NCBI GenBank assembly: GCA_032718475.1
Contig: JAUCBJ010008070.1
Location: forward strand, 27,932 to 91,931
Direction of reading: 5' to 3'
DNA: 64,000 nt
Source of the DNA: Nemertoderma westbladi
Lineage: Eukaryota; Animalia; Xenacoelomorpha
Shown: in pieces, positions 15,535 to 58,378 of the stretch
Numbering within the stretch: the stretch's first letter is position 1
How the letters are laid out: every line of letters starts with the position of its first letter
Made by a program: the position numbers and the translations under genes
Notes under the pieces: generated by a model
Database searches by the model: none
What the model saw: only the letters and a program-made list of their open reading frames with translations
What the model was told of the DNA's origin: nothing

Positions 15535-15586
15535 ATGGAGGCGGAATTAAGTGTGGAGCCATTACCTAGAAAAACATTAATTCACG
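15535..15586 (+). CDS. LRP2BP: LRP2-binding protein-like, first coding exon (MEAELSVEPLPRKTLIH, phase 1)
   Basis: ATG at 15535; donor G|GTAAGT at 15587; resembles the recalled LRP2BP N-terminus (MKLTSEKLP); phase fits the exon at 21714. Confidence 0.7.
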
Positions 15587-15656: not shown

Positions 15657-15874
15657 ATACTTTGATTATAAAGAGACTGCAATCGGTAGTTAGGTGATAT
15701 GTCGATGTCCCGCAGATATTGTTTTATATATAGTACCACCTCGCATTGATGGATGGGCCTTTATCTGCTGGAAAGGCAGTATGGTTGTCATCAATAAAAC
15801 GACTGATGCCAATCTGGCATGATTGCGAATTTTACAGAATCCCCCTTTCCTCTCTACTGGAGACAAGTCAAAGG
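15657..15874 (+). CDS. LRP2BP: Candidate micro-exons 15657-15685, 15734-15778 and 15838-15874
   Basis: Each is flanked by AG/GT. Phases chain 1-0-0-1 without stops (DTLIIKRLQS / YHLALMDGPLSAGKA / NPPFLSTGDKSK). No homology support visible, and direct splicing 15586 to 21714 is also in frame. Confidence 0.35.
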
Positions 15875-18800
15875 GTAACCCGAATGCTCCTCTCTACCTG
15901 AGTCAACCCGAAGGCTCATCTCTACAGAAGGCAACCCGAAGGCTCCTCTCTACCAGAGGCAACCCGAAGGCTCATATCTACTGGAGGCAACCCGAAGGCT
16001 CCTCTCTAAAGAAGGCAACCCGAAGGCTCCTCTCTACTGAAGGTAACCCGAAGGCTCCTCTCTACAGAAGGCAACCTAAGGCTCCTCTACTGGAGGCAAC
16101 CCGAAGGCTCCTCAACAGGAAGCAACCCGAAGGCTCTTCTCAAGAGGAAGCAACCCGAAGGATCCTCTCTACCGGAGGCAACCTGAAGGCTCTTCTCAAC
16201 AGGAAGCAACCCGAAGGCTCCTCTCTACTGGAGACAACCCGAAGGCTCCTCTCTACAGGAGGCAACCCGAAGGCTCCTGTCTAGAGGAGGCAACCCAATG
16301 GATCCTCTCTACAGGAGGCGACCCGATGGCTCCTCTCTACTGGAGGCAACCCGAAAGCTCCTCTTTACCGAGGCAACCCGAAGGATCCTCTCTGCAGGAG
16401 GCAACCCGAAGGCTCCTGTCTAGAGGAGGCAACCCAAAGTTTAATTTCTACCGGATTTAACCCGAAGACTCCTCTCTACTGGAGGCAACCCGAAGGCTCG
16501 TCTCTACAGGAGGCAACCTGAAAGCTCCTCTCTACTGGAGGCAACCTGAAGGCTCCTCTCTACAGGAGACAAACACGAAGGCTCCTGTCTACAGGAGGCA
16601 ACCCGAAGGCTCCTCTCTACTGGAGGCAACACGAAAGCTCCTCTCTACAGGAGGCAAACCTGAGGGTTCATTTCTACCGGATGCAACCTAAAGACTCCTC
16701 TCTACTGGAGGCAAACCGAAGGCTCCTCCATACAGGAGGCAACCCGAAGGCTCCTCTCTACCGGCTAGGCAGCCCGAAGGCTCCTCTCTACCGGAGGCAG
16801 CCCGAAGGCTCCTCTCTACCGGAGGCAACCTGAAGGCTCTTCTCTACCGGAGGCAGCCCGAAGGCTCCTCTCTACCGGAGGCAACCCGAAGGCTCATCTC
16901 TACCGGGGGCAACCCGAAGGCTCCTCTCGTTTCGAGGTAACCCGAATGCTCCTCTCTACCGGAGGCAACCCGAAGGCTCCTCTCTACCGGAGGCACCCGA
17001 CTCTCTACAGGATGCAACACGAAGGCTCCTCTCTACCAGAGGCAACCCGAAGGCTCCTCTCTACCGGAGGCAACCCGAAGGCTCCTCTGTACTGGAGGCA
17101 ACCCGAAGGCTCCTCTCTACCGGATGCAACCCGAAGGCTCCTCTCTTTTCGAGGTAACCCGAAGGCTCCTCTCTACTGGAGGCAACCAAAAGGCTCCTCT
17201 CTACTGGAGGCAACCCGAAGGCTCCTCTCTACTGGAGGCAACCCGAAGGCTCCTTTCTACCAGAGGCAGCCCGAAGGCTCCTCTCTACTGGAGGCAACCC
17301 GAAGGCTCCTCTCTACAGGAGGCAGCCCGAAGGCTCCTCTCTACCGGAGGCAACCCGAAGGCTCATCTCTACCGGGGGCAACCCGAAGGCTCCTCTCGTT
17401 TCGAGGTAACCCGAATGATCCTCTCTACCGGAGGCACCCGACTCTCTACAAGATGCAACACGAAGGCTCCTCTCTACCAGAGGCAACCCGAAGGCTCCTC
17501 TCTACTGGAGGCAACCCAAAGGCTCCTCTCTACTGGAGGCAACCCGAAGGCTCCTCTCTACTGGAGGCAACCCGAAGGCTCCTCTCTTTTCGAGGTAACC
17601 CGAAGGCTCCTCTCTACTGGAGCAACCCGAAGGCTCCTCTCTACTGGAGGCAACCCGAAGGTTCCTCTCTACCGGATGCAACCCGAAGGCTCCTCTCCTT
17701 TCGAGGTAACACGAAGGCTCCTCTCTACTGGAGGCAACCCGAAGGCTCCTCTCTACTGGAGGCAACCGGAAGGCTGCTCTCTATAGGAGGCAATCCGACG
17801 GCTCCTCTCTATAGGAGGCAACCCGACGGCTCCTCTCTATATGAGGCAACCCGAAGGCTCTTCTCTACCGGAGTCAACCCGGAGGCTCCTCTCTATCGGG
17901 GGTTACCCGAAGGCTCCTTTCTAAATGAGGCAACCCGAAGGCTCCTCTCTACTGGAGGCAACCCGAAGGCTCCTCTCTGTAGGAGGCTTCCTGAAGGCTC
18001 CTCTCTATATGTGGCAACCCGGAGGCTCCTCTCTACCGGAGGCAACCTGAAGGCTCCTCTCTACAGAAGGCAACCCGGAAGCTCTTCTCTACCGGAGGCA
18101 ACCCGGAGGCTCCTCTCTACTGGAGGCAACCCGGAGGCTCCTCTCTACTGGAGGCAACCCGGAGGCTCCTCTCTACAGAAGGCAACCCGGAAGCTCTTCT
18201 ATACCGGAGGCAACCCGGAGGCTCCTCTCTACTGGAGGCAACCCGGAGGCTCCTCTCTACTGGAGGCAACCCGAAGGCTCTTCTCTACCGGAGGCAACCC
18301 AGAGGCTCCTCTCTACTGGAGACAACCCGGAGGCTCCTCTCTACTGGAGGCAACCCGAAGGCTCCTCTCTACTGGAGGCAACACGAAAGCTCCTCTCTAC
18401 AGGAGGCAAACCTGAGGGTTCATTTCTACCGGATGCAACCTAAAGACTCCTCTCTACTGGAGGCAAACCGAAGGCTCCTCCATACAGGAGGCAACCCGAA
18501 GGCTCCTCTCTACCGGCTAGGCAGCCCGAAGGCTCCTCTCTACCGGAGGCAGCCCGAAGGCTCCTCTCTACCGGAGGCAACCTGAAGGCTCTTCTCTACC
18601 GGAGGCAGCCCGAAGGCTCCTCTCTACCGGAGGCAACCCGAAGGCTCATCTCTACCGGGGGCAACCCGAAGGCTCCTCTCGTTTCGAGGTAACCCGAATG
18701 CTCCTCTCTACCGGAGGCAACCCGAAGGCTCCTCTCTACCGGAGGCACCCGACTCTCTACAGGATGCAACACGAAGGCTCCTCTCTACCAGAGGCAACCC

Positions 18801-21630
18801 GAAGGCTCCTCTCTACCGGAGGCAACCCGAAGGCTCCTCTGTACTGGAGGCAACCCGAAGGCTCCTCTCTACCGGATGCAACCCGAAGGCTCCTCTCTTT
18901 TCGAGGTAACCCGAAGGCTCCTCTCTACTGGAGGCAACCAAAAGGCTCCTCTCTACTGGAGGCAACCCGAAGGCTCCTCTCTACTGGAGGCAACCCGAAG
19001 GCTCCTTTCTACCAGAGGCAGCCCGAAGGCTCCTCTCTACTGGAGGCAACCCGAAGGCTCCTCTCTACAGGAGGCAGCCCGAAGGCTCCTCTCTACCGGA
19101 GGCAACCCGAAGGCTCATCTCTACCGGGGGCAACCCGAAGGCTCCTCTCGTTTCGAGGTAACCCGAATGATCCTCTCTACCGGAGGCACCCGACTCTCTA
19201 CAAGATGCAACACGAAGGCTCCTCTCTACCAGAGGCAACCCGAAGGCTCCTCTCTACTGGAGGCAACCCAAAGGCTCCTCTCTACTGGAGGCAACCCGAA
19301 GGCTCCTCTCTACTGGAGGCAACCCGAAGGCTCCTCTCTTTTCGAGGTAACCCGAAGGCTCCTCTCTACTGGAGCAACCCGAAGGCTCCTCTCTACTGGA
19401 GGCAACCCGAAGGTTCCTCTCTACCGGATGCAACCCGAAGGCTCCTCTCCTTTCGAGGTAACACGAAGGCTCCTCTCTACTGGAGGCAACCCGAAGGCTC
19501 CTCTCTACTGGAGGCAACCGGAAGGCTGCTCTCTATAGGAGGCAATCCGACGGCTCCTCTCTATAGGAGGCAACCCGACGGCTCCTCTCTATATGAGGCA
19601 ACCCGAAGGCTCTTCTCTACCGGAGTCAACCCGGAGGCTCCTCTCTATCGGGGGTTACCCGAAGGCTCCTTTCTAAATGAGGCAACCCGAAGGCTCCTCT
19701 CTACTGGAGGCAACCCGAAGGCTCCTCTCTGTAGGAGGCTTCCTGAAGGCTCCTCTCTATATGTGGCAACCCGGAGGCTCCTCTCTACCGGAGGCAACCT
19801 GAAGGCTCCTCTCTACAGAAGGCAACCCGGAAGCTCTTCTCTACCGGAGGCAACCCGGAGGCTCCTCTCTACTGGAGGCAACCCGGAGGCTCCTCTCTAC
19901 TGGAGGCAACCCGGAGGCTCCTCTCTACAGAAGGCAACCCGGAAGCTCTTCTATACCGGAGGCAACCCGGAGGCTCCTCTCTACTGGAGGCAACCCGGAG
20001 GCTCCTCTCTACTGGAGGCAACCCGAAGGCTCTTCTCTACCGGAGGCAACCCAGAGGCTCCTCTCTACTGGAGACAACCCGGAGGCTCCTCTCTACTGGA
20101 GGCAACCCGAAGGCTCCTCTCTACAGAAGGCAACCCGAAGGCTCCCCTCTACCGGAGGCAACCCGAAGGCTCCTCTCTACTGGTGGCAACCCCAAGGCTC
20201 CTCTCTACCGGAAGCAACCCGAAGGCTCCTTTCTAAATGTGGCAACCCGAAGGCTCCTCTCTACAGGAGGCAACCCGAAGGCTCCTCTCTACTGGAGGCA
20301 ACCCGAAGGCTCCTCTCTACCGGAGGCAACCCGTAGGCTCCTCTCTACTGGAGGCAACCCAAAGGCTCCTCTATACTGGTGGTAACCCAAAGTATCCTCT
20401 CTATCGGAAGCAACCCGAAGGCTCCTCTCTACTGGAGGCAACCCGAAGGCTCCTCTCTATAGGAGGCAACCCGAAGGCTCCTCTCTACCGGAAGGAACAC
20501 AAAGGCTCCTCACTACCGGAGGCAACCCAAAGGCTCCTCTCTACCGGTGGCAACCCAAAGGCTCCTCTCTATAGGAGGCAACCCGAAGGCTCCTCACTAC
20601 CGGAGGCAACCCGAAGGCTCCTCACTACCGGAGGCAACCCAAAGGCTCCTCTCTACCGGTGGCAACCCAAAGGCTCCTCTCTACTGGAGGCAACACGAAT
20701 GCTCCTCTCTACTGGAGGCAACCCGAAGGCTCATCTCTACTGGAGGCAACCCGAAGGCTCCTCTGTACAGGAGGCAACCCGAAGGCTCCTCTCTACCGGA
20801 GGCACCCGACTCTCTACAGGATGCAACACGAAGGCTCCTCTCTACCAGAGGCAACCCGAAGGCTCCTCTCTACCGGAGGCAACCCGAAGGCTCCTCTGTA
20901 CTGGAGGCAACCCGAAGGCTCCTCTCTACCGGATGCAACCCGAAGGCTCCTCTCTTTTCGATGTAACCCGAAGGCACATCTCTACTGGAGGCAACCCATA
21001 GGCTCCTCTCTACTGGAGGCAACCCGAAGGCTCCTCTCTACTGGAGGCAACCCGAAGGCTCCTCTCTTTTCGAGGTAACCCGAAGGGTCCTCTCTACTGG
21101 AGGCAACCCGAATGCTCCTCTCTACTGGAGGCAACCCGAAGGCTCATCTCTACTGGAGGCAACCAGAAGGCTCCTCTCTACCGGAGGCAACCGGTAGGCT
21201 ACTCTCTACTGGAGGCAACCCAAAGGCTCCTCTCTACCGGTGGCAACCCAAAGGCTCCTCTCTACTGGAGGCAACACGAATGCTCCTCTCTACTGGAGGC
21301 AACCCGAAGGCTCATCTCTACTGGAGGCAACCCGAAGGCTCCTCTCTACAGGAGGCAACCCGAAGGCTCCTCTCTACCGGAGGCAACCCCAAGGCTCCAC
21401 TCTACCGGAGGCAACCCGAAGGCTCCTCTCTACTGGAGGCAACCCGAAGGCTCCTCTACTGGAGGCAACCCGAAGGCTCCTCTCTACAGGAGGCAACCCG
21501 AAGGCTCCTCTCTACTGGAGGCAACCCGAAGGGTCCTCTCTACAGGAGGCAACCCGAAGGCTCCTCTCTACTGGAGGCAACCCGAAGGCTTCTCTCTACT
21601 GGAGGCCATTCGAAGGATCCTCTCTACCGG
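15850..21630 (+). repeat. 28-bp intronic satellite (GGAGGCAACCCGAAGGCTCCTCTCTACT), ~205 units
   Basis: Clear 28-bp period; includes a 1752-bp near-exact tandem block (identical 220-aa ORFs at 17124 and 18876). Confidence 0.97.
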
Positions 21631-21713
21631 AGGAAACCCATTTATTTTCTTTAAATACGTAATTAAATTAAAATTGTTATTTACTATATAACTATATGTT
21701 TATTTAATCCTAG

Positions 21714-21856
21714 ACGAAATAAACAAAGAATATGACCTCACTGCAAGAACATTGGATCCAGATTCACTGGAAAGAATTGAACATAAAATTCTAGAAAAGA
21801 TTGAAGGAGGGGATGAATATGCGAAGTTTCAACTTGGTCAACTATTTTTCGAACAG
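21714..21856 (+). CDS. LRP2BP: LRP2BP-like exon (DEINKEYD...EKIEGGDEYAKFQLGQLFFEQ)
   Basis: Acceptor CCTAG|, donor CAG|GTAATT; matches recalled LRP2BP [21 protein letters not shown]. Confidence 0.88.
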
Positions 21857-22040
21857 GTAATTTTCGAACATTTGAACAGTATCTATCTTTCATTAGTATC
21901 TATCTTCTCGGAGAAAATCAAAACAACAAGAAAGAAAATGTAATATAACTTACAAAAAACCTTCATGAAACACTTTCTCTCGCTACTGGCTAATAAACTC
22001 GCTTCTCGCTAAATTCCACTTGCTACTCGAAGCTTTATAA

Positions 22041-22244
<204 letters not shown>

Positions 22245-22671
22245 TAGGAACACATAAAGACCCGGTTAGTATTAGCAGTGCCACGGATTAGGAACACATG
22301 AAGACCCGGTTAGTAGTAGCAGTACCACGGATTAGGAACACATGAAGACCCGGTTAGTAGTAGCAGTACCACGGATTAGGAACACATAAAGACCCGGTTA
22401 GTATTAGCAGTGCCACAGATTAGGAACACATAAAGACCCGGTTAGTAGTAGCAGTACCACGGATTAGGAACACATGAAGACCCGGTTAGTAGTAGCAGTT
22501 CCACGGATTAGGAACACATAAAGACCCGGTTAGTATTAGCAGTGCCACGGATTAGGAACACATAAAGACCCGGTTAGTATTAGCAGTGCCACGGATTAGG
22601 AACACATAAAGACCCAGTTAGTAGTAGCAGTACTACGGATTAGTAACACATGAAGAACCACTTAGTGAAAT

Positions 22672-23529
22672 ACAGTCGAGGAAATCCTGCCAAGTACCTA
22701 ACTGATCTAGACTTTGCTGATGACTTAGGAGTACTCTCAGAATCATTAGAGGGAGCCCAGCGGCTCCTCAGCTCATTAGAACATGCTGCTTCTAGTGTTG
22801 GTCTTTTTATTAACTCCAGAAAGACCAAAATTCTGACAGTTAACTTTGAAAGTCCTCAGCAAGTCTCTGATCGGATGAGCATAAGCTCAAAGGATGGTAT
22901 GCTTGAGCATGTGGATGACTTCTGTTACCTGGGATCATGGATCCGGAAGTCAGGTGAGGACCTTCGAATACGTAAGGGAAAGGCATGGGCAGCCTTGAAT
23001 AGGCTTTCCAGGATTTGGAAGTCACCTAGAATTAATCGGAAACTTAAGGTCCGATTATTTAGAGCAGCAGTAGTTCCAGTACTCCTCTACGGGAGTCCAT
23101 GCTGGGCTCTAACTGCTGAGGACACCAAATCTCTGGATGGCACATTCACAAGAATGCTACGCCGGGTACATTGTGTCAAGTACAATGTAAACATCTCCAA
23201 CCAGACACTATATAACATTGGAGGTGTCTCATTGGTTCCCCCAAGCTTGACACTAGAACAAAATCGGCTCCGCTTTGCAGGACATTGCTTTCGCCGTGAG
23301 GACCAGCCAGTGCATAATCTTGTACTTTGGCAGCCTCATGGAGTGAATAAGCATGGTGGACAACCCATGACTTTCTTGAGACGCATCTTAAAGGACACTG
23401 GCCTTGAAGATGCGGATGATCTAGCAAATGTCATGGGTGATAGGGAGTTGTGGCGGTGCGATTTTGTCGATAAGCCGGCACAGCATTCTTAAAAATGCAG
23501 CTGCAATGCAGCATGCCGATCCTAGTAGT
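22672..23529 (+). mobile_element. 5'-truncated RTE/RTE-X-type LINE (RT C-terminal half) with 12-bp TSD
   Basis: TDLDFADDL, GLFINSRKTKIL, FCYLGS, RLRFAGHCFR motifs; stop at 23490-23492; short TAG-repeat tail; TSD ACTTAGTGAAAT at 22660-22671 and 23530-23541. Confidence 0.9.
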
Positions 23530-23535
23530 ACTTAG

Positions 23536-23764
23536 TGAAATGATTGTCTGGTTTAAGATCTTGCATATCGGTATTATATTTGAACTCAGTTCATAAGATA
23601 TATAAGAGTACATATACTACTGTACTACCGAAGCACTACTGCACTCAAATACCCCAACACCAGTATCTCGCTATCCCCAAGCCTAATACAGTCCTCCTAG
23701 GCCCAACCTCAAGGGGCGAGCCATATGAATTGGTGAGTCTCCTCCTTATCACCTAATTCCATCA
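23536..23764 (-). repeat. Gypsy 3' LTR (229 bp)
   Basis: Direct repeat of 29096-29322; preceded on the minus strand by the PPT. Confidence 0.95.
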
Positions 23765-24871
23765 TCCCCCCATTAAGATCGATTGGTCCTTATCAGATTG
23801 GAATCTAACGGTTTTAGTACGTGTTCGAGTTCCTTGTCTCAAGGCTGATTTGGGTGTTTCCGTAGGAGTTTCATCCTTTGTCTCTATGGAATCACTGGAG
23901 CTTGGATATGGTCGCAGGAAGCGACGATTACGCCATAAGACTTTCCCGGATGGTAATTTTACGTGGTAATCTCTACTCATCTTTCCCCTTTCAAAAATAA
24001 TCCCCTTCATTGTCCATCTCTTAGAAACGGGATCCTGTATGAGTACGTGTGTTCCAGGTTCAAGCGGTTTTAATGTGTGTGCGGATCTGTCGTAATATTC
24101 TTTCTGTTTATTTGCCTTTATAAAGTCAGTATCTGCGGCCATCGTCAGCCAATTGGCAGAGAATGTTGAGTAATGAGCTGGAACTCGTGAACGCAACGGA
24201 TGTCCATACAGTATGATAGCGGGAGAATGTCCATCGATGTGTGGGGTATTTCTTAATTCTAAAAGGCCATGAAGGAATGAATCCGTATGTAAGTTTCCGC
24301 CATCTGTTTTTGCAACCAAATTTTTTAATATGCGGACATTGACTTCAGCGTGTCCGTTGGATTGGGCATATGTTGGAGATGATGGTATCCATTCTACTCC
24401 CCAAGTTTTAAGGAAATCTGAAAATATCTTGGAACTGTATTGGGGTCCTCCATCTGAGCGGAGTCGAACTGGTACTCCCATTTGGACGAAATAACCTTTG
24501 ATTTCTTTCAAAACCTGTTGGGAGGTTGGAGTATAATTCCAATGAGATATGAATGGAAATCCTGAGTAGCGGTCTACATAGACTAAGTAAGTGTGTGTTC
24601 CAAGTGAGAATAGGTCTGTTGAAACAGATTCGAATATGCGTGTTGGCATAGGATCGCTTATTAGCGGTTCCTTAGGGTTGCTTGGCAACCGAAGTTGACA
24701 CTTATCACATGATTGTATAGCCATTGTGAGGTCGTTCGTTATACCCAGCCAGTACACACACTGTCTGGCGCGCATTTTCGTCCTTTCAATACCCTGATGT
24801 GAGTCATGGAGTCTATTGATAACATTTTTGCGTAGGTCAAAGGGTATCACTAGACAGCACCCGAACAACAC
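23762..24871 (-). pseudogene. Gypsy integrase (frameshifted from RNase H)
   Basis: HDSHQG...CDKC zinc finger; STDLF, RSDGGPQY, SNGHAE (DDE); WRNRRFL. Confidence 0.92.
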
Positions 24872-25940
24872 AAGACCGTTGTCAATTTGTCAAAAATTTT
24901 GACAAATTGGCAATTTGCGTGAGGCCCCTCAAAGCCTGTCTCAATTGATTTTATTAGTAATTGATAATTATAGTCTAATTTAGCCGCGACTTTTATGTCT
25001 TCTATTACAGGATCAGGGAAATGGTGAGTTTCACCTGAATTCGTTCCTGCTATCATTATTGTAACGGCATTCAGTATAATATTAGCGGTCATGTACCCAG
25101 TCGTGTTGTTAGTTTCAGTTTCGGGGTCATCGACCGGTGCTCTGGATAAGGCATCAGGTATTTTATTATCTGAACCTTTCCGCCATTTAACAACAAAATT
25201 GTAGCTGCTGAGCTTCATTTTGTGATTGAGTAAGCGCACATTATCTATTGTGTCTAATGTTTGTTTGTTGTAAATGGACACTAAAGGACTGTGATCGGTA
25301 ATTACTGTATACAATGCTAGGCCAGTAAGATAGATGCGACACTTCTGAGTTGCCCAGAGTATTGCAAGGGACTCTAGCTCTACCATCGCATATCTAGACT
25401 CCGCGTCTGATATAAAACGCGAGCCACATTGAATTAGTTTAAAACATTCGTCTTGTTTCTGTAACAAGGCATATCCTAGGCCACCTTTATGTGCCGCATC
25501 TACTTCTAAAACAATTTCGGCCTTGGGGTCAAAATTGGATAAAATTGGCGTAGATGATAAAGCAATTTTCATATTGTCAAATGCTTTCTGGTGGTTTGGT
25601 GTCCACAAAAATTGATTTTTTGTTTTCAGTATATCTCTCAAAGGACTAGCTATTAAACTTATTTCGGCCGAAAAGTGGCCCAACTGTTGTACTAAACCCA
25701 TAAAGGATCGAAGTTCGGTTCTATTGGTAGGTGTAGGGAATTGACTAATCCCTTTTACCTTCACTGGGTCTGCTTTTATTCCCTCTTGCGACACTATATA
25801 ACCTGCAAAATTCATTTCACTTTGGGCGAATTTGAGTTTTTTTTGGTTTATAGTGATATTATATTTCATGCAACGTTCTAAAACGTTACAAACATTTCGG
25901 ACGTGGTCCTGAAAGTTTACATTATAAATTATAATATTGG
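24850..25940 (-). pseudogene. Gypsy RT C-terminus and RNase H
   Basis: FAGYIVS, ELRSFMGL, EVDAA, YAMVELE, TDHSPL, DALSR; starts just after where the YxDD motif should be. Confidence 0.9.
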
Positions 25941-28900: not shown

Positions 28901-28967
28901 CCTTGAAACCACCGAGTTTCCGCTTTAGGTGTTTCATCCCCTCGAGGTCCATAATTGAATTCCTCAC
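25922..28967 (-). pseudogene. Gypsy gag-protease and RT N-terminus, frameshifted and interrupted by L2
   Basis: Gag pieces 28967-28569, ~27703-27450 and 27429-27100. Knuckles CTKCGYSH...C and CSVCHKLNHFANVC. Protease PDTGS. RT start PTEWCHPMVI. Confidence 0.88.
27706..28570 (+). mobile_element. 5'-truncated L2-clade LINE 3' end inserted in Gypsy gag
   Basis: RDHITPTLHALHWLP...YKCLHGMAPDYL...RAFSVAAPTIWNSLP; 3' end AAGGCGCTATATAAAT followed by an (ATT)n tail. Confidence 0.9.
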
Positions 28968-29095
28968 AGTTGTTCCTTCCCTATTGCAGTATTGGATTTA
29001 CTGTTTGGTCGGTTATCGTTTCTGGTGGGTTTGTAGGTATCGGTACTGGTATGTTATCCTGGAACGACCGAACTGCTACCCTACTCGCAGCGCCA

Positions 29096-29322
29096 TGAAA
29101 TGATTGTCTGGTTTAAGATCTTGCATATCGGTATTATATTTGAACTCAGTTCATAAGATATAAGAGTACATATACTACTGTACTACCGAAGCACTACTGC
29201 ACTCAAATACCCCAACACCAGTATCTCGCTATCCCCAAGCCTAATACAGTCCTCCTAGGCCCAACCTCAAGGGGCGAGCCATATGAATTGGTGAGTCTCC
29301 TCCTTATCACCTAATTCCATCA
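29096..29322 (-). repeat. Gypsy 5' LTR (227 bp)
   Basis: Direct repeat of 23536-23764; PBS adjacent at ~29079-29095. Confidence 0.95.
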
Positions 29323-45300: not shown

Positions 45301-48300
45301 TTAAACAGCTTCACTATACAGTAATACGTGATTAAACAGCTTCACTATACAGTACCACGTGATTAAACAGCTTCACTATACAGTACCACGGTATTAAACA
45401 GCTTCACTATACAGTACCACGTGATTAAACAGCTTCACTATACAGTAATACGTGATTAAACAGCTTCACTATACAGTAATACGTGATTAAACAGCTTCAC
45501 TATACAGTACCACGGTATTAAACAGCTTCACTATACAGTACCACGTGATTAAACAGCTTCACTATACAGTAATACGTGATTAAACAGCTTCACTATACAG
45601 TACCACGTGATTAAACAGCTTCACTATACAGTACCACGGTATTAAACAGCTTCACTATACAGTACCACGTGATTAAACAGCTTCACTATACAGTAATACG
45701 TGATTAAACAGCTTCACTATACAGTACCACGTGATTAAACAGCTTCACTATACAGTAATACGTGATTAAACAGCTTCACTATACAGTACCACGTGATTAA
45801 ACAGCTTCACTATACAGTACCACGGTATTAAACAGCTTCACTATACAGTACCACGTGATTAAACAGCTTCACTATACAGTAATACGTGATTAAACAGCTT
45901 CACTATACAGTACCACGTGATTAAACAGCTTCACTATACAGTACCACGTGATTAAACAGCTTCACTATACAGTGCCACGTTATTAAACAGCTTCACTATA
46001 CAGTACCACGTTATTAAACAGCTTCACTATACAGTACCACGTGATTAAACAGCTTCACTATACAGTAATACGTGATTAAACAGCTTCACTATACAGTAAT
46101 ACGTGATTAAACAGCTTCACTATACAGTAATACGTGATTAAACAGCTTCAATATACAGTACCACGTGATTAAACAGCTTCACTATACAGTAATACGTGAT
46201 TAAACAGCTTCACTATACAGTACCACGTGATTAAACAGCTTCACTATACAGTACCACGGTATTAAACAGCTTCACTATACAGTACCACGTGATTAAACAG
46301 CTTCACTATACAGTAATACGTGATTAAACAGCTTCACTATACAGTACCACGTGATTAAACAGCTTCACTATACAGTACCACGTGATTAAACAGCTTCACT
46401 ATACAGTGCCACGTTATTAAACAGCTTCACTATACAGTACCACGTTATTAAACAGCTTCACTATACAGTACCACGTGATTAAACAGCTTCACTATACAGT
46501 AATACGTGATTAAACAGCTTCACTATACAGTAATACGTGATTAAACAGCTTCACTATACAGTAATACGTGATTAAACAGCTTCACTATACAGTACCACGG
46601 TATTAAACAGCTTCACTATACAGTACCACGTGATTAAACAGCTTCACTATACAGTAATACGTGATTAAACAGCTTCACTATACAGTACCACGTGATTAAA
46701 CAGCTTCACTATACAGTACCACGGTATTAAACAGCTTCACTATACAGTACCACGTGATTAAACAGCTTCACTATACAGTAATACGTGATTAAACAGCTTC
46801 ACTATACAGTACCACGTGATTAAACAGCTTCACTATACAGTAATACGTGATTAAACAGCTTCACTATACAGTACCACGTGATTAAACAGCTTCACTATAC
46901 AGTACCACGGTATTAAACAGCTTCACTATACAGTACCACGTGATTAAACAGCTTCACTATACAGTAATACGTGATTAAACAGCTTCACTATACAGTACCA
47001 CGTGATTAAACAGCTTCACTATACAGTACCACGTGATTAAACAGCTTCACTATACAGTGCCACGTTATTAAACAGCTTCACTATACAGTACCACGTTATT
47101 AAATAGCTTCACTATACAGTAATACGTGATTAAACAGCTTCACTATACAGCAATACGTGATTAAACAGCTTCACTATACAGTACCACGTGATTAAACAGC
47201 TTCACTATACAGTACCACGGTATTAAACAGCTTCACTATACAGTACCACGTGATTAAACAGCTTCACTATACAGTAATACGTGATTAAACAGCTTCACTA
47301 TACAGTACCACGTGATTAAACAGCTTCACTATACAGTACCACGGTATTAAACAGCTTCACTATACAGTACCACGTGATTAAACAGCTTCACTATACAGTA
47401 ATACGTGATTAAACAGCTTCACTATACAGTAATACGTGATTAAACAGCTTCACTATACAGTACCACGGTATTAAACTGCTTCACTATACAGTACCACGTT
47501 ATCAAACAGATTCACTATACAGTACCACGTTATCAAACAGATTCACTATACAGTAATACGTGATTAAACAGCTTCACTATACAGTACCACGTTATTAAAC
47601 AGCTTCACTATACAGTACCACGTTATTAAACAGCTTCACTATACAGTAGTACGTGATTAAACAGCTTCACTATACAGTAATACGTGATTAAACAGTTTCA
47701 CTATACAGTACCACGGTATTAAACAGCTTCACTATACAGTACCACGTTATTAAACAGCTTCACTATACAGTAATACGTGATTAAACAGCTTCACTATACA
47801 GTACCACGTGATTAAACAGCTTCACTATACAGTACCACGTTATCAAACAGCTTCACTATACAGTACCACGTTATTAAACAGCTTCACTATACAGTGCCAC
47901 GTTATTAAACAGCTTCACTATACAGTAATACGTGATTAAACAGCTTCACTATACAGTACCACGTGATCAAACAGGTTTACTATACAGTACCACGTGATCA
48001 AACAGGTTCACTATTCTACAGTACCACGTGATTAAACAGCTTCACTATACAGTACCACGGTATTAAACAGCTTTACTATACAGTGCCACGTTATTAAACA
48101 GCTTCACTATACAGTAATATGTGATTAAACAGCTTCACTATACAGTACCACGTGATCAAACAGGTTCACTATACAGTACCACGTGATCAAACAGGTTCAC
48201 TATTCTACAGTACCACGTGATTAAACAGCTTCACTATACAGTACCACGGTATTAAACAGCTTTACTATACAGTGCCACGTTATTAAACAGCTTCACTATA

Positions 48301-50330
48301 CAGTAATACGTGATTAAACAGCTTTACTATACAGTACCACGTTATCAAACAGATCCACTATACAGTACCACGTTATCAAACAGATTCACTATACAGTAAT
48401 ACGTGATTAAACAGCTTCACTATACAGTACCACGGTATTAAACTGCTTCACTATACAGTACCACGTTATCAAACAGATTCACTATACAGTACCACGTTAT
48501 CAAACAGATTCACTATACAGTAATACGTGATTAAACAGCTTCACTATACAGTACCACGTTATTAAACAGCTTTACTATACAGTGCACGTTATTAAACAGC
48601 TTCACTATACAGTAATACGTGATTAAACAGCTTCACTATACAGTACCACGTGATCAAACAGGTTCACTATACAGTACCACGTGATCAAACAGGTTCACTA
48701 TTCTACAGTACCACGTGATTAAACAGCTTCACTATACAGTACCACGGTATTAAACAGCTTTACTATACAGTGCCACGTTATTAAACAGCTTCACTATACA
48801 GTAATACGTGATTAAACAGCTTCACTATACAGTACCACGTGATCAAACAGGTTCACTATACAGTACCACGTGATCAAACAGGTTCACTATTCTACAGTAC
48901 CACGTGATTAAACAGCTTCACTATACAGTACCACGGTATTAAACAGCTTTACTATACAGTGCCACGTTTTTAAACAGCTTCACTATACAGTAATACGTGA
49001 TTAAACAGCTTTACTATACAGTACCACGTTATCAAACAGATTCACTATACAGTACCACGTTATCAAACAGATTCACTATACAGTAATACGTGATTAAACA
49101 GCTTCACTATACAGTACCACGGTATTAAACTGATTCACTATACAGTACCACGTTATCAAACAGATTCACTATACAGTACCACGTTATCAAACAGATTCAC
49201 TATACAGTAATACGTGATTAAACAGCTTCACTATACAGTACCACGTTATTAAACAGCTTCACTATACAGTACCACGGTATTAAACAGCTTTACTATACAG
49301 TACCACGTTATCAAACAGCTTCACTATACAGTAATACGTGATTAAACAGCTTCACTATACAGTACCACGTTATTAAACAGCTTCACTATACAGTAATACG
49401 TGATTAAACAGCTTCACTATACAGTACCACGTGATTAAACAGCTTCACTATACAGTAATACGTGATTAAACAGCTTCACTATACAGTACCACGTGATTAA
49501 ACAGCTTCACTATACAGTAATACGTGATTAAACAGCTTCACTATACAGTACCACGTTATTAAACAGCTTCACTATACAGTAATACGTGATTAAACAGCTT
49601 CACTATACAGTACCACGTGATTAAACAGCTTCACTATACAGTAATACGTGATTAAACAGCTTCACTATACAGTACCACGTGATTAAACAGCTTCACTATA
49701 CAGTAATACGTGATTAAACAGCTTCACTATACAGTACCACGTTATTAAACAGCTTTACTATACAGTACCACGTTATCAAACAGCTTCACTATACAGTAAT
49801 ACGTGATTAAACAGCTTCACTATACAGTACCACGTTATTAAACAGCTTCACTATACAGTACCACGGTATTAAACAGCTTCACTATACAGTACCACGTTAT
49901 TAAACAGCTTCACTATACAGTACCACGTTATTAAACAGCTTCACTATACAGTACCACGGTATTAAACAGCTTCACTATACAGTACCACGGTATTAAACAG
50001 CTTCACTATACAGTACCACGTTATTAAACAGCTTCACTATACAGTAATACGTGATTAAACAGCTTCACTATACAGTACCACGTGATTAAACAGCTTCACT
50101 ATACAGTAATACGTGATTAAACAGCTTCACTATACAGTACCACGTGATTAAACAGCTTCACTATACAGTAATACGTGATTAAACAGCTTCACTATACAGT
50201 ACCACGTTATTAAACAGCTTTACTATACAGTACCACGTTATCAAACAGCTTCACTATACAGTAATACGTGATTAAACAGCTTCACTATACAGTACCACGT
50301 GATTAAACAGCTTCACTATACAGTCCCACG
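39319..50330 (+). repeat. 31-bp intronic satellite (ACAGTACCACGTTATTAAACAGCTTCACTAT), ~355 units
   Basis: Period 31; joins the 44-bp array seamlessly through shared AGTACCACGG; the variant TATTCTACAG marks higher-order blocks. Confidence 0.97.
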
Positions 50331-50417
50331 TAACTTATTTGCTGCAGCAAGTAGGGCAGTTATTTTCTTCGTTATTAATTTTATTTTATTATTTTTACTG
50401 TTCATTATATCTTATAG

Positions 50418-50523
50418 CAACGTGGAGTTGAATTAATGATATCTCTTGCGGAGGAGCCAAGCACGGAAGGAACACATCTACGTCATTGCGCCCAGTATAA
50501 TACGGGACTAGCTTACTTTCAAG
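50418..50523 (+). CDS. LRP2BP: LRP2BP-like exon (QRGVELMISLAEEP...HLRHCAQYNTGLAYFQ)
   Basis: TTATAG| acceptor in phase 0, fitting 22220; resembles recalled EKGVDYMKKI...HLKFAAAYNLGRAYYE; donor AAG|GTTGCT. Confidence 0.87.
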
Positions 50524-50658
50524 GTTGCTATTGTTTATCGCATTCTTTCATAGGCAATTACAAAACTATATATATTTTTAATCTGCTAAGTGTCCGTGGG
50601 GACCGTTACAGTGCCCGTTCAGTTTACCGTCATTGTAAATGTTTTGAATTTCTTTTAG

Positions 50659-50896
50659 AGACTGGCGTAAAACAATCAGATGAAGAAGCAGAGAGATGGT
50701 GGATTTTAGCTGCTGATGATGGCTCGCCAGAAGGTTCACTGAAGGCCCAGACTGCCCTTGGTCTTTTCTACTCCAGACCTGATACTATGGATTTTAAGCA
50801 ATCCTTTTTCTGGCATAATGAGGGTTGTGGTAACGGGAGTTTAGAGTCACAAGGGGCAATTGGAGCTCTATATTATTATGGGAAAGGTTGTACTAG
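50659..50896 (+). CDS. LRP2BP: LRP2BP-like exon, Sel1 repeats (TGVKQSDEEAERWWILAADDG...FFWHNEGCGNGSLESQGAIG...GKGCT)
   Basis: Strong match to recalled [20 protein letters not shown] and [26 protein letters not shown]| acceptor; TAG|GTATGT donor, phase 2. Confidence 0.93.
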
Positions 50897-53800
50897 GTAT
50901 GTAGGAGGGAAGGGATGTACCAGGTAGGTGGTGGGGAAGGGATGTACCAGGTATGTAGGAGGGAAGGGAGGTACCAGGTAGGTGGTGGGGAAGTGGTGGG
51001 GAAGGGATGTACCAGGTATGTAGGAGGGAATGGAGGTACCAGGTAGGTGGTGGGGAAGTGGTGGGGAAGGGATGTACCAGGTATGTAGGAGGGAAGGGAT
51101 GTACCATGTAGGTGGTGGGGAAGTGGTGGGGAAGGGATGTACCAGGTATGTAGGGGGGGGGGAGGGATGTACCAGGTAAGTGGTGGGGAAGGGATGTACC
51201 AGGTATGTAGGGGGGGGGGGATGTACCAGGTAAGTGGTGGGGAAGGGATGTACCAGGTATGTAGGAGGGAACGGATGCACCAGGTATGTAGGAGGGAAGG
51301 GATGTACAAGGTAGGTGGTGGGGAAGAGATGTACCATAGGTATGTAGGAGGGAAGGGATGTACCAGGTATGTAGGAGGGAAGGGATGTACCAGGTATGTA
51401 GGAGGGAAGGGATGTACCAGGTATGTAGGAGGGAAGGGATGTACCAGGTAGGTGGTGGGGAAGGGATGTACCAGGTATGTAGGAGGGAAGGGATGTACCA
51501 GGTATTTAGGAGGGAAGGGATGTACCAGGTATGTAGGAGGGAAGGGATGTACCAGGTATGTAGGAGGGAAGGGATGTACCAGGTATTTAGGAGGGAAGGG
51601 ATGTACCAGGTATGTAGGAGGGAAGGGATGTACCAGGTATGTAGGAGGGAAGGGATGTACCAGGTAGGTGGTGGGGAAGGGATGTACCAGGTATGTAGGA
51701 GGGAAGGGATGTACCAGGTAAGTAGGAGGGAAGGGATGTACCAGGTATGTAGGAGGGAAGGGATGTACAAGGTAGGTGGTGGGGAAGGGATGTACCAGGT
51801 ATGTAGGAGGGAAGGGATGTACCAGGTAGGTGTGCAAGGGAAGGGATGTACCAGGTAAGTAGGAGGGAAGGGATGTACCAGGTATGTAGGAGGGAAGGGA
51901 TGTACAAGGTAGGTGGTGGGGAAGGGATGTACCAGGTATGTAGGAGGGAACGGATGTACCAGGTATGTAGGAGGGAACGGATGTACCAGGTATGTAGGAG
52001 GGAAGGGATGTACCAGGTAGGTGGTGGGGAAGGGATGTACCAGGTATGTAGGAGGGAACGGATGTACCAGGTATGTAGGAGGGAAGGGATGTACCAGGTA
52101 TGTAGGAGGGAAGGGTTGTACCAGGTATGTAGGAGGGAACGGATGTACCAGGTATGTAGGAGGGAACGGATGTACCAGGTATGTAGGAGGGAAGGGATGT
52201 ACCAGGTAGGTGGTGGGGAAGGGATGTACCAGGTATGTAGGAGGGAAGGGATGTACCAGGTAGGTGGTGGGGAAGGGATGTACCAGGTATGTAGGAGGTT
52301 AGGGATGTACCAGGTAGGTGGTGGGGAAGGGATGTACCAGGTATGTAGGAGGGAAGGGATGTACCAGGTAGATGGTGGGGAAGGGATGTACCAGGTAGGT
52401 GGTGGGGAAGAGATGTACCATAGGTATGTAGGAGGGAAGGGATGTACCATGTAGGTGGTGGGGAAGAGATGTACCATAGGTATGTAGGAGGGAAGGGATG
52501 TACCAGGTGTGTATGAGGGAACGGATGTACCAGGTATGTAGGAGGGAAGGGATGTACAAGGTAGGTGGTGGGGAAGGGATGTACCAGGTAGGTGGTGGGG
52601 AAGAGATGTACCATAGGTATGTAGGAGGGAAGGGATGTACCAGGTATGTAGGAGGGAAGGGATGTACCAGGTATGTAGGAAGGAAGGGATGTACCAGGTA
52701 TGTAGGAGGGTAGGGATGTACCAGGTATTTAGGAGGGAAGGGATGTACCAGGTATGTAGGAGGGAAGGGATGTACCAGGTATGTAGGAGGGAAGGGATGT
52801 ACCAGGTAGGTGGTGGGGAAGGGATGTACCAGGTATGTAGGAGGGAAGGGATGTACCAGGTAAGTAGGAGGGAAGGGATGTACCAGGTAGGTGGTGGGGA
52901 AGGGATGTACCAGGTATGTAGGAGGTTAGGGATGTACCAGGTAGGTGGTGGGGAAGGGATGTACCAGGTATGTAGGAGGGAAGGGATGTACCAGGTAAGT
53001 AGGAGGGAAGGGATGTACCAGGTATGTAGGAGGGAAGGGATGTACCAGGTAGGTGGTGGGGAAGGGATGTACCAGGTATGTAGGAGGTTAGGGATGTACC
53101 AGGTAGGTGGTGGGGAAGGGATGTACCAGGTATGTAGGAGGGAAGGGGTGTACCAGGTAAGTAGGAGGGAAGGGATGTACCAGGTAAGTAGGAGGGAAGG
53201 GATGTACCAGGTATGTAGGAGGGAAGGGATGTACCAGGTAGGTGGTGGGGAAGGGATGTACCAGGTATGTAGGAGGTTAGGGATGTACCAGGTAGGTGGT
53301 GGGGAAGGGATGTACCAGGTAGGTGGTGGGGAAGGGATGTACCAGGTATGTAGGAGGTTAGGGATGTACCAGGTAGGTGGTGGGGAAGGGATGTACCAGG
53401 TATGTAGGAGGGAAGGGATGTACCAGGTAAGTAGGAGGGAAGGGATGTACCAGGTATGTAGGAGGGAAGGGATGTACAAGGTAGGTGGTGGGGAAGGGAT
53501 GTACCAGGTATGTAGGAGGGAAGGGATGTACCAGGTAGGTGTGCAAGGGAAGGGATGTACCAGGTAAGTAGGAGGGAAGGGATGTACCAGGTATGTAAGA
53601 GGGAAGGGATGTACAAGGTAGGTGGTGGGGAAGGGATGTACCAGGTATGTAGGAGGGAACGGATGTACCAGGTATGTAGGAGGGAACGGATGTACCAGGT
53701 ATGTAGGAGGGAAGGGATGTACCAGGTAGGTGGTGGGGAAGGGATGTACCAGGTATGTAGGAGGGAACGGATGTACCAGGTATGTAGGAGGGAAGGGATG

Positions 53801-56800
53801 TACCAGGTATGTAGGAGGGAAGGGTTGTACCAGGTATGTAGGAGGGAACGGATGTACCAGGTATGTAGGAGGGAACGGATGTACCAGGTATGTAGGAGGG
53901 AAGGGATGTACCAGGTAGGTGGTGGGGAAGGGATGTACCAGGTATGTAGGAGGGAAGGGATGTACCAGGTAGGTGGTGGGGAAGGGATGTACCAGGTATG
54001 TAGGAGGTTAGGGATGTACCAGGTAGGTGGTGGGGAAGGGATGTACCAGGTATGTAGGAGGGAAGGGATGTACCAGGTAGATGGTGGGGAAGGGATGTAC
54101 CAGGTAGGTGGTGGGGAAGAGATGTACCATAGGTATGTAGGAGGGAAGGGATGTACCAGGTAGGTGGTGGGGAAGAGATGTACCATAGGTATGTAGGAGG
54201 GAAGGGATGTACCAGGTGTGTATGAGGGAACGGATGTACCAGGTAAGTAGGAGGGAAGGGATGTACCAGGTATGTAGGAGGGAAGGGATGTACAAGGTAG
54301 GTGGTGGGGAAGGGATGTACCAGGTAGGTGGTGGGGAAGAGATGTACCATAGGTATGTAGGAGGGAAGGGATGTACCAGGTATGTAGGAGGGAAGGGATG
54401 TACCAGGTATGTAGGAAGGAAGGGATGTACCAGGTATGTAGGAGGGAAGGGATGTACCAGGTATTTAGGAGGGAAGGGATGTACCAGGTATGTAGGAGGG
54501 AAGGGATGTACCAGGTATGTAGGAGGGAAGGGATGTACCAGGTAGGTGGTGGGGAAGGGATGTACCAGGTATGTAGGAGGTTAGGGATGTACCAGGTAGG
54601 TGGTGGGGAAGGGATGTACCAGGTATGTAGGAGGGAAGGGATGTACCAGGTAAGTAGGAGGGAAGGGATGTACCAGGTAGGTGGTGGGGAAGGGATGTAC
54701 CAGGTATGTAGGAGGTTAGGGATGTACCAGGTAGGTGGTGGGGAAGGGATGTACCAGGTATGTAGGAGGGAAGGGATGTACCAGGTAAGTAGGAGGGAAG
54801 GGATGTACCAGGTATGTAGGAGGGAAGGGATGTACCAGGTAGGTGGTGGGGAAGGGATGTACCAGGTATGTAGGAGGTTAGGGATGTACCAGGTAGGTGG
54901 TGGGGAAGGGATGTACCAGGTATGTAGGAGGGAAGGGGTGTACCAGGTAAGTAGGAGGGAAGGGATGTACCAGGTATGTAGGAGGGAAGGGATGTACCAG
55001 GTAAGTAGGAGGGAAGGGATGTACCAGGTATGTAGGAGGGAAGGGATGTACCAGGTAGGTGGTGGGGAAGGGATGTACCAGGTATGTAGGAGGTTAGGGA
55101 TGTACCATGTAGGTGGTGGGGAAGGGATGTACCAGGTATGTAGGAGGGAAGGGATGTACCAGGTATGTAGGAGGGAAGGGATGTACCAGGTAAGTAGGAG
55201 GGAAGGGATGTACCAGGTAGGTGGTGGGGAAGGGATGTACCAGGTATGTAGGAGGTTAGGGATGTACCAGGTAGGTGGTGGGGAAGGGATGTACCAGGTA
55301 TGTAGGAGGGAAGGGATGTACCAGGTAAGTAGGAGGGAAGGGATGTACCAGGTATGTAGGAGGGAAGGGATGTACCAGGTAGGTGGTGGGGAAGGGATGT
55401 ACCAGGTATGTAGGAGGGAAGGGATGTACCAGGTAAGTAGGAGGGAAGGGATGTACCAGGTAGATGGTGGGGAAAGGATGTACCAGGTAGGTGGTGGGGA
55501 AGAGATGTACCATAGGTATGTAGGAGGGAAGGGATGTACCAGGTAGGTGGTGGGGAAGAGATGTACCATAGGTATGTAGGAGGGAAGGGATGTACCAGGT
55601 GTGTATGAGGGAACGGATGTACCAGGTATGTAGGAGGGAAGGGATGTACAAGGTAGGTGGTGGGGAAGGGATGTACCAGGTAGGTGGTGGGGAAGAGATG
55701 TACCATAGGTATGTAGGAGGGAAGGGATGTACCAGGTATGTAGGAGGGAAGGGATGTACCAGGTATGTAGGAAGGAAGGGATGTACCAGGTATGTAGGAG
55801 GGAAGGGATGTACCAGGTATTTAGGAGGGAAGGGATGTACCAGGTATGTAGGAGGGAAGGGATGTACCAGGTATGTAGGAGGGAAGGGATGTACCAGGTA
55901 GGTGGTGGGGAAGGGATGTACCAGGTATGTAGGAGGTTAGGGATGTACCAGGTAGGTGGTGGGGAAGGGATGTACCAGGTATGTAGGAGGGAAGGGATGT
56001 ACCAGGTAAGTAGGAGGGAAGGGATGTACCAGGTAGGTGGTGGGGAAGGGATGTACCAGGTATGTAGGAGGTTAGGGATGTACCAGGTAGGTGGTGGGGA
56101 AGGGATGTACCAGGTATGTAGGAGGGAAGGGATGTACCAGGTAAGTAGGAGGGAAGGGATGTACCAGGTATGTAGGAGGGAAGGGATGTACCAGGTAGGT
56201 GGTGGGGAAGGGATGTACCAGGTATGTAGGAGGGAAGGGATGTACCAGGTAAGTAGGAGGGAAGGGATGTACCAGGTAGGTGGTGGGGAAGGGATGTACC
56301 AGGTAGGTGGTGGGGAAGGGATGTACCAGGTATGTAGGAGGGAAGGGGTGTACCAGGTAAGTAGGAGGGAATGGATGTACCAGGTATGTAGGAGGGAAGG
56401 GATGTACCAGGTAAGTAGGAGGGAAGGGATGTACCAGGTATGTAGGAGGGAAGGGATGTACCAGGTAGGTGGTGGGGAAGGGATGTACCAGGTATGTAGG
56501 AGGTTAGGGATGTACCAGGTAGGTGGTGGGGAAGGGATGTACCAGGTATGTAGGAGGGAAGGGATGTACCAGGTATGTAGGAGGGAAGGGATGTACCAGG
56601 TAAGTAGGAGGGAAGGGATGTACCAGGTAGGTGGTGGGGAAAGGATGTACCAGGTATGTAGGAGGTTAGGGATGTACCAGGTAGGTGGTGGGGAAGGGAT
56701 GTACCAGGTATGTAGGAGGGAAGGGATGTACCAGGTAAGTAGGAGGGAAGGGATGTACCAGGTATGTAGGAGGGAAGGGATGTACCAGGTAGGTGGTGGG

Positions 56801-58220
56801 GAAGGGATGTACCAGGTATGTAGGAGGGAAGGGATGTACCAGGTAAGTAGGAGGGAAGGGATGTACCAGGTAGGTGGTGGGGAAGGGATGTACCAGGTAG
56901 GTGTAGGGAAGGGATGTACCAGGTATGTAGGAGGGAAGGGATGTACCAGGTATGTAGGAGGGAAGGGATGTACCAGGTATTTAGGAGGGAAGGGATGTAC
57001 CAGGTATGTAGGAGGGAAGGGATGTACCAGGTATGTAGGAGGGAAGGGATGTACCAGGTAAGTAGGAGGGAAGGGATGTACCAGGTATGTAGGAGGGAAG
57101 GGATGTACCAGGTAGGTGGTGGGGAAGGGATGTACCAGGTATGTAGGAGGGAAGGGATGTACCAGGTAAATAGGAGGGAAGGGATGTACCAGGTAGGTGG
57201 TGGGGAAGGGATGTACCAGGTAGGTGTAGGGAAGGGATGTACCAGGTATGTAGGAGGGAAGGGATGTACCAGGTATGTAGGAGGGAAGGGATGTACCAGG
57301 TATTTAGGAGGGAAGGGATGTACCAGGTATGTAGGAGGGAAGGGATGTACCAGGTATGTAGGAGGGAAGGGATGTACCAGGTATGTAGGAGGGAAGGGAT
57401 GTACCAGGTATGTAGGAGGGAAGGGATGTACCAGGTAGGTGGTGGGGAAGGGATGTACCAGGTATGTAGGAGGTTAGGGATGTACCAGGTAGGTGGTGGG
57501 GAAGGGATGTACCAGGTATGTAGGAGGGAAGGGATGTACCAGGTAAGTAGGAGGGAAGGGATGTACCAGGTAGGTGGTGGGGAAGGGATGTACCAGGTAT
57601 GTAGGAGGTTAGGGATGTACCAGGTAGGTGGTGGGGAAGGGATGTACCAGGTATGTAGGAGGGAAGGGATGTACCAGGTAAGTAGGAGGGAAGGGATGTA
57701 CCAGGTATGTAGGAGGGAAGGGATGTACCAGGTAGGTGGTGGGGAAGGGATGTACCAGGTATGTAGGAGGGAAGGGATGTACCAGGTAAATAGGAGGGAA
57801 GGGATGTACCAGGTAGGTGGTGGGGAAGGGATGTACCAGGTAGGTGTAGGGAAGGGATGTACCAGGTATGTAGGAGGGAAGGGATGTACCAGGTATGTAG
57901 GAGGGAAGGGATGTACCAGGTATTTAGGAGGGAAGGGATGTACCAGGTATGTAGGAGGGAAGGGATGTACCAGGTATGTAGGAGGGAAGGGATGTACCAG
58001 GTATGTAGGAGGGAAGGGATGTACCAGGTATGTAGGAGGGAAGGGATGTACCAGGTATGTAGGAGGGAAGGGATGTACCAGGTGTAGGAGGGAAGGGATA
58101 TACCAGGTATGTAGGAGGGAAGGGATGTACCAGGTATGTAGGAGGGAAGGGATGTACCAGGTATGTAGGAGGGAAGGGATGTACCAGGTAGGTGGTGGGG
58201 AAGGGATGTACCAGGTAGGT
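50880..58220 (+). repeat. 27-bp G-rich exon/donor-derived satellite (GGGAAGGGATGTACCAG|GTATGTAGGA and variants), ~270 units
   Basis: First unit is exon end GGGAAAGGTTGTACTAG plus donor GTATGTAGGA; variants GTAGGTGGTG and GTAAGTAGGA. Confidence 0.97.
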
Positions 58221-58249
58221 ACCTAATAAATCTCTATATTTTTATTTAG

Positions 58250-58378
58250 GAATGAGAAATATGCTTATGAGTGTTGGAAAGAAGCCGCGGAGCGTGGTAA
58301 TGTATTTGCAATGGGTTGCCTAGTGATGTATTATTATCACCGAAAATTATATAATAGAGCTGCCCAATTAGCCGCATA
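58250..58378 (+). CDS. LRP2BP: LRP2BP-like exon ([42 protein letters not shown])
   Basis: TTTTATTTAG| acceptor in phase 2; matches recalled [22 protein letters not shown]; donor TA|GTAAGT. The C-terminal exon(s) are not found in the window. Confidence 0.92.

Follow-up and report, generated by a model that had tools for sequence, protein, structure and literature searches.

Minisatellites that copy exon ends and splice donors in introns of an LRP2BP gene of Nemertoderma westbladi

How does a compact gene, which over its six known exons would have measured about 1.8 kb in a rough reconstruction, come to span 42.8 kb, and how is it spliced when two of its donors are repeated hundreds of times in the introns that follow them? 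Both questions are raised by a stretch of 64,000 nucleotides (nt) of the xenacoelomorph Nemertoderma westbladi (assembly GCA_032718475.1, contig JAUCBJ010008070.1, positions 27,932 to 91,931), here called the window, whose + strand carries an orthologue of LRP2BP with six coding exons seen between 15535 and 58378 (Table 1). Tandem arrays, called with Tandem Repeats Finder (TRF), occupy 40,387 of the 64,000 window bases (63%); within the gene, measured from the ATG through exon 6, they take up 34,623 of 42,844 bases. A first-pass annotation, made from the letters alone, had proposed that a recurring process focused on donor junctions inflated successive introns of a compact gene to more than 48 kb. 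Growth mainly by way of arrays stands, but the inflated introns alternate (1, 3 and 5, the largest being intron 3 with 28,197 nt), introns 2 and 4 being short (250 and 135 nt), and the verified span is 42.8 kb. The account that we consider probable is that the 44-bp and 27-bp arrays of introns 3 and 5 are minisatellites born at this locus that copy an exon end together with its donor, that they arose in small introns by ordinary short tandem duplication and that they are tolerated through use of the first donor; it draws on the exon origin of the units, first-donor use in one contig, the presence of the arrays in DNA runs, the donor-less arrays beside them and the long exact blocks within arrays.

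Both arrays begin inside an exon, as the first-pass annotation had noticed for the exons ending at 22220 and 50896. The 44-bp unit consists of the last 30 nt of exon 3 followed by 14 nt of intron and differs from the exon at one position, and the 27-bp unit consists of the last 17 nt of exon 5 followed by 10 nt of intron, with three differences from the exon. Since the exon-derived parts of both units code for LRP2BP residues that are conserved across animals, the exon is, judged from the sequence, the source and the array the copy. The 44-bp array totals about 237 units and holds, over both of its blocks, 176 intact copies of the donor CCG/GTTAGT (the slash marks the exon-intron boundary); the donor G is gone from 58 of 236 copies, so that there is no sign of donor upkeep in this array. 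In the 27-bp array 248 copies of CAG/GT are found, 29 of them CAG/GTAAGT, and a search for four-run G3 quadruplex motifs with loops of up to 12 nt found none. The three positions at which exon 5 departs from the 27-bp consensus (50885, 50888 and 50894) are all synonymous third positions, where the exon's own bases occur in 0-2 of 269 copies; the chance of all three being synonymous is 0.013 for random changes and, estimated by hand, about 0.05 for an exon under purifying selection. An older state of exon 5 may be kept in the array.

The identity of the gene was established with exon 5 as query, for which 25 proteins were returned from 285 candidates. The top matches are named LRP2-binding proteins of fish, molluscs, hemichordates, annelids and echinoderms (E 1e-32 to 1e-22, 57-75% identity), in agreement with the LRP2BP-like label of the first pass; Sel1 on single exons scores below the Pfam cut-off. 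Joined at GT-AG, the six exons give an open frame of 260 residues, which aligns from its N-terminus with 15 LRP2BP homologues (tblastn) and is 46-58% identical to full-length matches from end to end, with no close relative among the matches. Because the tblastn matches listed leave some 75-85 residues at the C-terminus of the homologues without a counterpart in the window, the gene probably continues past position 64000, and it is on such last exons beyond the window that the figure of more than 48 kb rests.

Which donors are used? Eight sequencing runs are listed, three of them containing the region and none recorded as RNA. Runs X6 and X7, from other organisms, gave no match to the region and have no bearing on the question. 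Run X3, which belongs to a different sample and study, has no library or tissue on record and is labelled 'DNA?', was recognised as spliced from its contig, a single one of 1461 nt (depth 311) that holds exons only and lacks introns 2 and 4, removed at GT..AG. The loose ends of the contig read into exon 1 upstream of 21714, into exon 4 downstream of 22220, into exon 3 upstream of 50418 and from exon 5 into exon 6, giving the junctions 22220-50418 and 50896-58250 and joining exon 1 (end 15586) straight to 21714. Therefore, in this one contig of one run, the first donor is used at both the 44-bp and the 27-bp array, as the first-pass annotation had expected of a spliceosome facing hundreds of copies. 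By a crude U1-match score, intron 5 offers 260 sites that equal or exceed the authentic TAG/GTATGT, 233 of them scoring higher. Use of any downstream 44-bp donor would lead to a stop at 22245, and of each donor beyond the second in intron 5 to a stop at 50925. On the account favoured here, the first donor would be chosen by co-transcriptional exon definition or by oriented scanning as in human F7 (see below), and nonsense-mediated decay would serve as back-up, because all but one of the downstream donors would bring in a stop. The X3 contig also extends about 230 nt upstream of the ATG. At the other end, unless splicing takes place at the GTAAGT donor at 58379, the frame of exon 6 reads into TAG TAA (58376-58381); about 450 nt of the contig lie downstream of that point. 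Another transcript contig of the same run, likewise LRP2BP-like and 1269 nt long at a depth of 147, matches 50805-50892 with 16 differences in 88 nt and is taken to come from a paralogue or from another organism in the sample.

How might such arrays have come about? Short direct repeats would give rise to the seeds through slippage or repair. The 44-bp unit could be a join of TACGACGG-ATTA in exon 3 to the intronic TACCACGGTATTA, which follows the last donor copy at 39321, and such a join would account for the single difference of the unit from the exon. The 31-bp array that comes next, at 11 kb longer than any other in the gene, is bounded by CAGTACCACG and CAGTCCCACG; it opens at the TACCACGGTATTA sequence and closes at a near-copy of the first 10 nt of that sequence. 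The two arrays might then stem from adjacent parts of a single intron some 140 nt long, only the 44-bp array being seeded across the donor. Growth would proceed through unequal exchange or replication slippage of blocks of 0.2-2 kb; exact internal repeats reach 437 nt in the 50-bp, 1779 nt in the 28-bp, 967 nt in the 44-bp, 693 nt in the 31-bp and 619 nt in the 27-bp array, the exact 1779-nt block recurring at a lag of 1752. Selection would then act as a filter, purging seeds in exons or across branch point and acceptor and tolerating intronic or donor-spanning ones. In a rough null that purges seeds in exons and in the last 30 nt of an intron, and that assumes guessed ancestral introns of 50-400 nt, 16-26% of the tolerated seeds span a donor and the probability of at least two donor-spanning arrays among four is 0.12-0.27. 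Two of the four arrays in introns 1-5 do so, and by this rough null nothing in the window calls for a process directed at donors.

Several points weigh against this account. It concerns one gene and leans on guessed intron lengths, and the rough null is also compatible with a real genome-wide donor bias; both boundary arrays lie at donors and none at acceptors. A third donor would have to be counted if the 38-bp array near the end of the window, whose unit carries GTAAGT and faintly resembles the exon-6 donor, were related to it; the score of 23 is attained by 18 of 2288 overlapping tiles, and the uncorrected p is about 0.025 in a set of some 190 comparisons. Budding from a terminal 44-bp unit may instead be the origin of the 31-bp array. 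In the 27-bp array the GT is retained in 99-100% of the 269 units. Moreover, the view of splicing comes from one contig of one run, and assembled contigs lose rare isoforms. Finally, the second 27-bp donor (50924) is stronger than the authentic one, in frame and stop-free, and would add 9 residues; its non-use in the contig therefore requires a positional rule and not only decay.

Alternatively, mutation linked to transcription or splicing, by polymerase pausing, R-loops or U1-bound nascent RNA at 5' splice sites, could seed arrays at donors. With arrays at two of six donors and none at five acceptors, and with the weak third case at exon 6, this has some appeal, yet we regard it as unlikely, since selection alone predicts the asymmetry between donors and acceptors, two in four lies within the rough null, and reports from lancelet and chicken have repeats at both boundaries (PMC3087553, PMC12954441; comparisons with published systems refer throughout to the available text of the papers cited). 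Nor are the 28-bp and 31-bp arrays of these introns, or the 50-bp and 12-bp arrays nearby, donor-seeded, which also speaks against the recurring donor-focused process of the first-pass annotation. That annotation had assigned the 28-bp array to a candidate donor at 15875. The array begins 250 nt inside intron 1, its first degenerate unit lying within a 37-nt AG..GT pseudo-exon (15838-15874); taken as an exon this segment breaks the frame, its omission gives an open frame, and X3 skips it. Against donors 1, 2, 4 and 6 the 28-bp unit scores at background, GAG/GTAAC is present in only about 11 of about 207 units, and no site in intron 1 attains the U1 score of donor 1. The 31-bp unit likewise scores at background against donors 1, 2, 4 and 6; it has 10-12-mers in common with the 44-bp unit, the first 11-20 nt of the 31-bp unit being shared, so that of the claim that the arrays arose locally and share no sequence the first half holds and the second does not. 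The 50-bp unit, too, is at background against these four donors apart from one weak match to the donor-3 region (p 0.025, uncorrected), and no link of this array to any donor of the gene was found. A match of the 44-bp unit to donor 1 (p 0.005-0.01) is taken as chance, there being no array at that donor. If donor-biased seeding did operate genome-wide, a splicing signal would be tied to a DNA mutation process, a link absent from the available text of the papers cited.

The arrays could also be under selection as regulatory elements, acting as a transcription delay or as a sink for U1 or other splicing factors, in the manner of Drosophila Y-loop genes, this gene being probably ciliary. An X-box-like palindrome upstream of the ATG (15192-15204, judged against the RFX consensus) would be in keeping with a ciliary gene. 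The GT is almost invariant among the 27-bp copies, for which recent block expansion offers an explanation, and the gigantic introns of flies have a special expression programme (PMC6508621). We hold this to be distinctly improbable, given that the donor is gone from a quarter of the 44-bp copies, that a recent long terminal repeat (LTR) element and a long interspersed nuclear element (LINE) sit within an array, that the units vary from intron to intron and that the inflated introns measure 6-28 kb and not megabases.

Least credible of all, and very unlikely, is that the arrays are mostly assembly artefacts or pieces of dispersed satellite families that landed here: the summed depth is only about 20-40% of a simulated value and no read spans an array, but the units match conserved exon sequence, contigs with the 44-bp unit occur in runs X1, X2 and X4, and the depth leaves no space for a large dispersed family. 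Against a single-copy depth of 27 (X1) and 25.9 (X2), the 44-bp unit has a summed depth of 21,675 (X1) and 10,584 (X2) and the 27-bp unit one of 4,339 (X2); summed contig depths are not copy numbers, and the simulation from window 31-mers, which predicts 2.5-5 times more depth than observed, is a rough bound only. Individual X2 contigs are closer to the assembly, with 60 and 57 copies for the 27-bp unit, where the window has 91 and 89, and 45 and 29 for the 44-bp unit, where it has 55 and 35; three other X2 contigs, whose assignment is uncertain, fit worse (24, 17 and 13 against 46, 54 and 37). The ratio of X2 word depth to window count is accordingly 0.64-0.84 in the four best-matched contigs and lower in the three others. 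The arrays are real, of the same order of size as assembled and outside any large dispersed family; their exact lengths are approximate, and X1 and X2 may themselves underlie the assembly. In X2 the stretch 50335-50878 has no coverage, which is an effect of filtering.

Table 1. Exons, tandem arrays and inserted elements in the 64,000-nt window (positions count from its first letter).
Feature	Position	Strand	Remarks
50-bp array	12040-15081 (TRF 12061-15081)		about 58 units, 450 nt upstream of ATG
Coding exon 1	15535..15586	+	ATG to phase-1 donor; open spliced frame; directly precedes exon 2 in X3 contig
28-bp array	15838..21639 (TRF 15877-21639)	+	about 207 units, within intron 1
Coding exon 2	21714..21856	+	frame, homology, X3 contig
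Coding exon 3	22107..22220	+	final 30 nt begin the 44-bp array; authentic donor CCG/GTTAGT
44-bp array, first block	22191..22656	+	donor-spanning; about 10-11 units
Transposon insert splitting 44-bp array	22661..29322		6.66 kb, after tenth 44-bp unit; Pfam RVT_1, RT_RNaseH, rve
LINE reverse transcriptase fragment, 5'-truncated	about 22662-23520	+	Pfam RVT_1
Gypsy-like LTR element	LTRs 23536-23764 and 29096-29322	open reading frames on -	within insert
44-bp array, main block	29323..39322	+	donor-spanning; about 226-227 units
31-bp array	39319..50331	+	about 354 units, intron 3, without donor
Coding exon 4	50418..50523	+	frame, homology, X3 contig
Coding exon 5 (Sel1 repeats)	50659..50896	+	final 17 nt begin the 27-bp array; authentic donor TAG/GTATGT
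27-bp array	50880..58221	+	donor-spanning, about 270 units, intron 5
Coding exon 6	58250..58378	+	5' end as in RNA contig; 3' end deduced from GTAAGT and frame
12-bp minisatellite, both orientations	59264-59410 and 59758-61867		within hAT-like element
38-bp array	63571-64000		unit holds GTAAGT then TACTAAC

Intron 3 is thus more composite than in the first-pass description, which omitted both the 6.66-kb insert of LINE and LTR element and the 11-kb donor-less array. The LTR element, whose domains, like that of the LINE, come from a Pfam search, has two LTRs that differ by no substitution and one 2-nt indel; because they are nearly identical, its insertion is recent, and the 44-bp array is older than the insertion. 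At a loose end at 22260 in run X1 a 44-bp unit runs straight into a variant LTR start, with no LINE between them, which suggests another haplotype or a second insertion. A low-depth contig of run X4 on 21645-21954, with 7 substitutions and 7 gaps over 311 nt, mostly in intron 2, is probably a second haplotype; intron 2 also holds a short dispersed repeat (21957-22042). Of the claim that little unique sequence is left in the inflated introns, the 3' tails bear out their part (about 74-83, 87 and 29 nt after the arrays), and intron 1 retains, in addition, the roughly 250 nt of unique sequence between its donor and the 28-bp array. Outside the gene, the 50-bp array contains a 935-nt higher-order repeat, and the - strand of 1-11410 carries a BEL/Pao-like LTR element with a 1665-residue frame and DUF1759, the 165 nt at 1-165 recurring exactly at 11246-11410. 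An element with imperfect inverted ends at 58612-62091 contains the 12-bp minisatellite and resembles a hAT-type non-autonomous transposon. A single copy of the 38-bp unit lies at 62093-62120, 1.5 kb upstream of its array and beside a transposon-like end.

How does this locus compare with known systems? The first-pass annotation had drawn a parallel with the gigantic introns of the Drosophila Y chromosome, which reportedly consist of simple-sequence satellites, and the parallel is a loose one. In kl-3 and kl-5, as in LRP2BP, introns are dominated by tandem repeats in a gene that is intact and expressed, but they reach megabase scale within a spermatocyte-specific programme, far from the largest LRP2BP intron, and the available text of these reports gives no exon-junction origin for the repeats (PMC6508621, PMC11207136). 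The pattern as such had also been held to be undescribed, and here human, lancelet and chicken precedents stand against it (PMC1557585, PMC3087553, PMC3902484, PMC12954441). One literature search, swamped by unrelated matches, gave no report of repeats in LRP2BP introns, and no report of hundreds of donor copies was found in texts without their supplements, so that larger published cases may exist.

In intron 7 of human F7 a 37-bp variable number tandem repeat provides 5-9 donors, and splicing takes place at the most upstream alone, as demonstrated by mutagenesis (PMC1557585). In LRP2BP, too, the first unit spans the junction, identical donors follow downstream and the most upstream one is used; the difference lies in the 176-248 donors, many of which match U1 better than the authentic site. 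The locus also provides a natural example of a weaker first donor that prevails over 233 better-matching copies, one of them in frame, stop-free and 27 nt away. The 'mirage' minisatellites of lancelets, known from Adh3, troponin C, globins and PGBD5, have units of 10-160 bp, 2-7 per array, at donors and acceptors (PMC3087553, PMC3902484). They share with LRP2BP that boundary-spanning repeats occur in an invertebrate and more than once per gene (two exons in PGBD5), that splicing is apparently undisturbed and that units at the edges escape homogenisation; LRP2BP departs from them in having hundreds of units, arrays of 7-10 kb and donors only. A first unit lying across the exon-intron boundary, as in mirages and F7, is found for the 44-bp and 27-bp arrays and not for the 28-bp and 31-bp arrays.

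The closest counterpart is the sequence or exon stuttering of chicken dot chromosomes, where local expansions, each with its own unit, are confined to introns and leave the coding sequence intact, and where 236 introns in 115 genes contain exon-edge copies that include the splice site, with 1-44 exon copies detected (median 4) and spans of up to 23,555 bp (PMC12954441). As there, the introns of LRP2BP are filled by local arrays, with exons intact and the frame open, and intron 3 has the layout of chicken PHF8 intron 18, one exon-derived and one intron-only cluster. At the BLAST threshold of the chicken screen (length at least 20, bits at least 42.1), which marks exon-edge copies in the adjacent intron, exon 3 gives 177 matches in intron 3 and the other five exons give none, exon 5 because only 17 nt with 3 differences were copied. 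With about 237 and about 270 copies, LRP2BP exceeds the chicken maximum some 5-6 times. Length polymorphism is demonstrated in chicken and, by the X2 ratios of 0.64-0.84, only hinted at here. Furthermore, stuttering in birds and gerbils is associated with GC-rich chromosomes poor in interspersed repeats, in chicken with GC-rich dot chromosomes devoid of them, its mechanism being left open (PMC12954441), whereas the LRP2BP region is AT-rich outside the arrays (GC 0.31-0.50) and holds LINE, Gypsy-like and BEL-like elements. Such an AT-rich case weakens the idea that intron stuttering requires GC-rich DNA. It is tempting, if improbable, to go further and to suppose that exon stuttering independent of GC content occurs throughout this genome, with 5' splice sites as its true seeds and a spliceosome that stays with the first donor despite about 250 others of equal or greater strength, spaced 27 nt apart; if true, the proposed link to GC-rich chromosomes would be broken and first-come donor choice would have its most extreme natural test. 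Exon-edge stuttering is thus already published, and what stands out at the LRP2BP locus is the copy number and the setting: a published type of repeat is extended to many more copies and to an animal genome that is AT-rich and well stocked with transposons.

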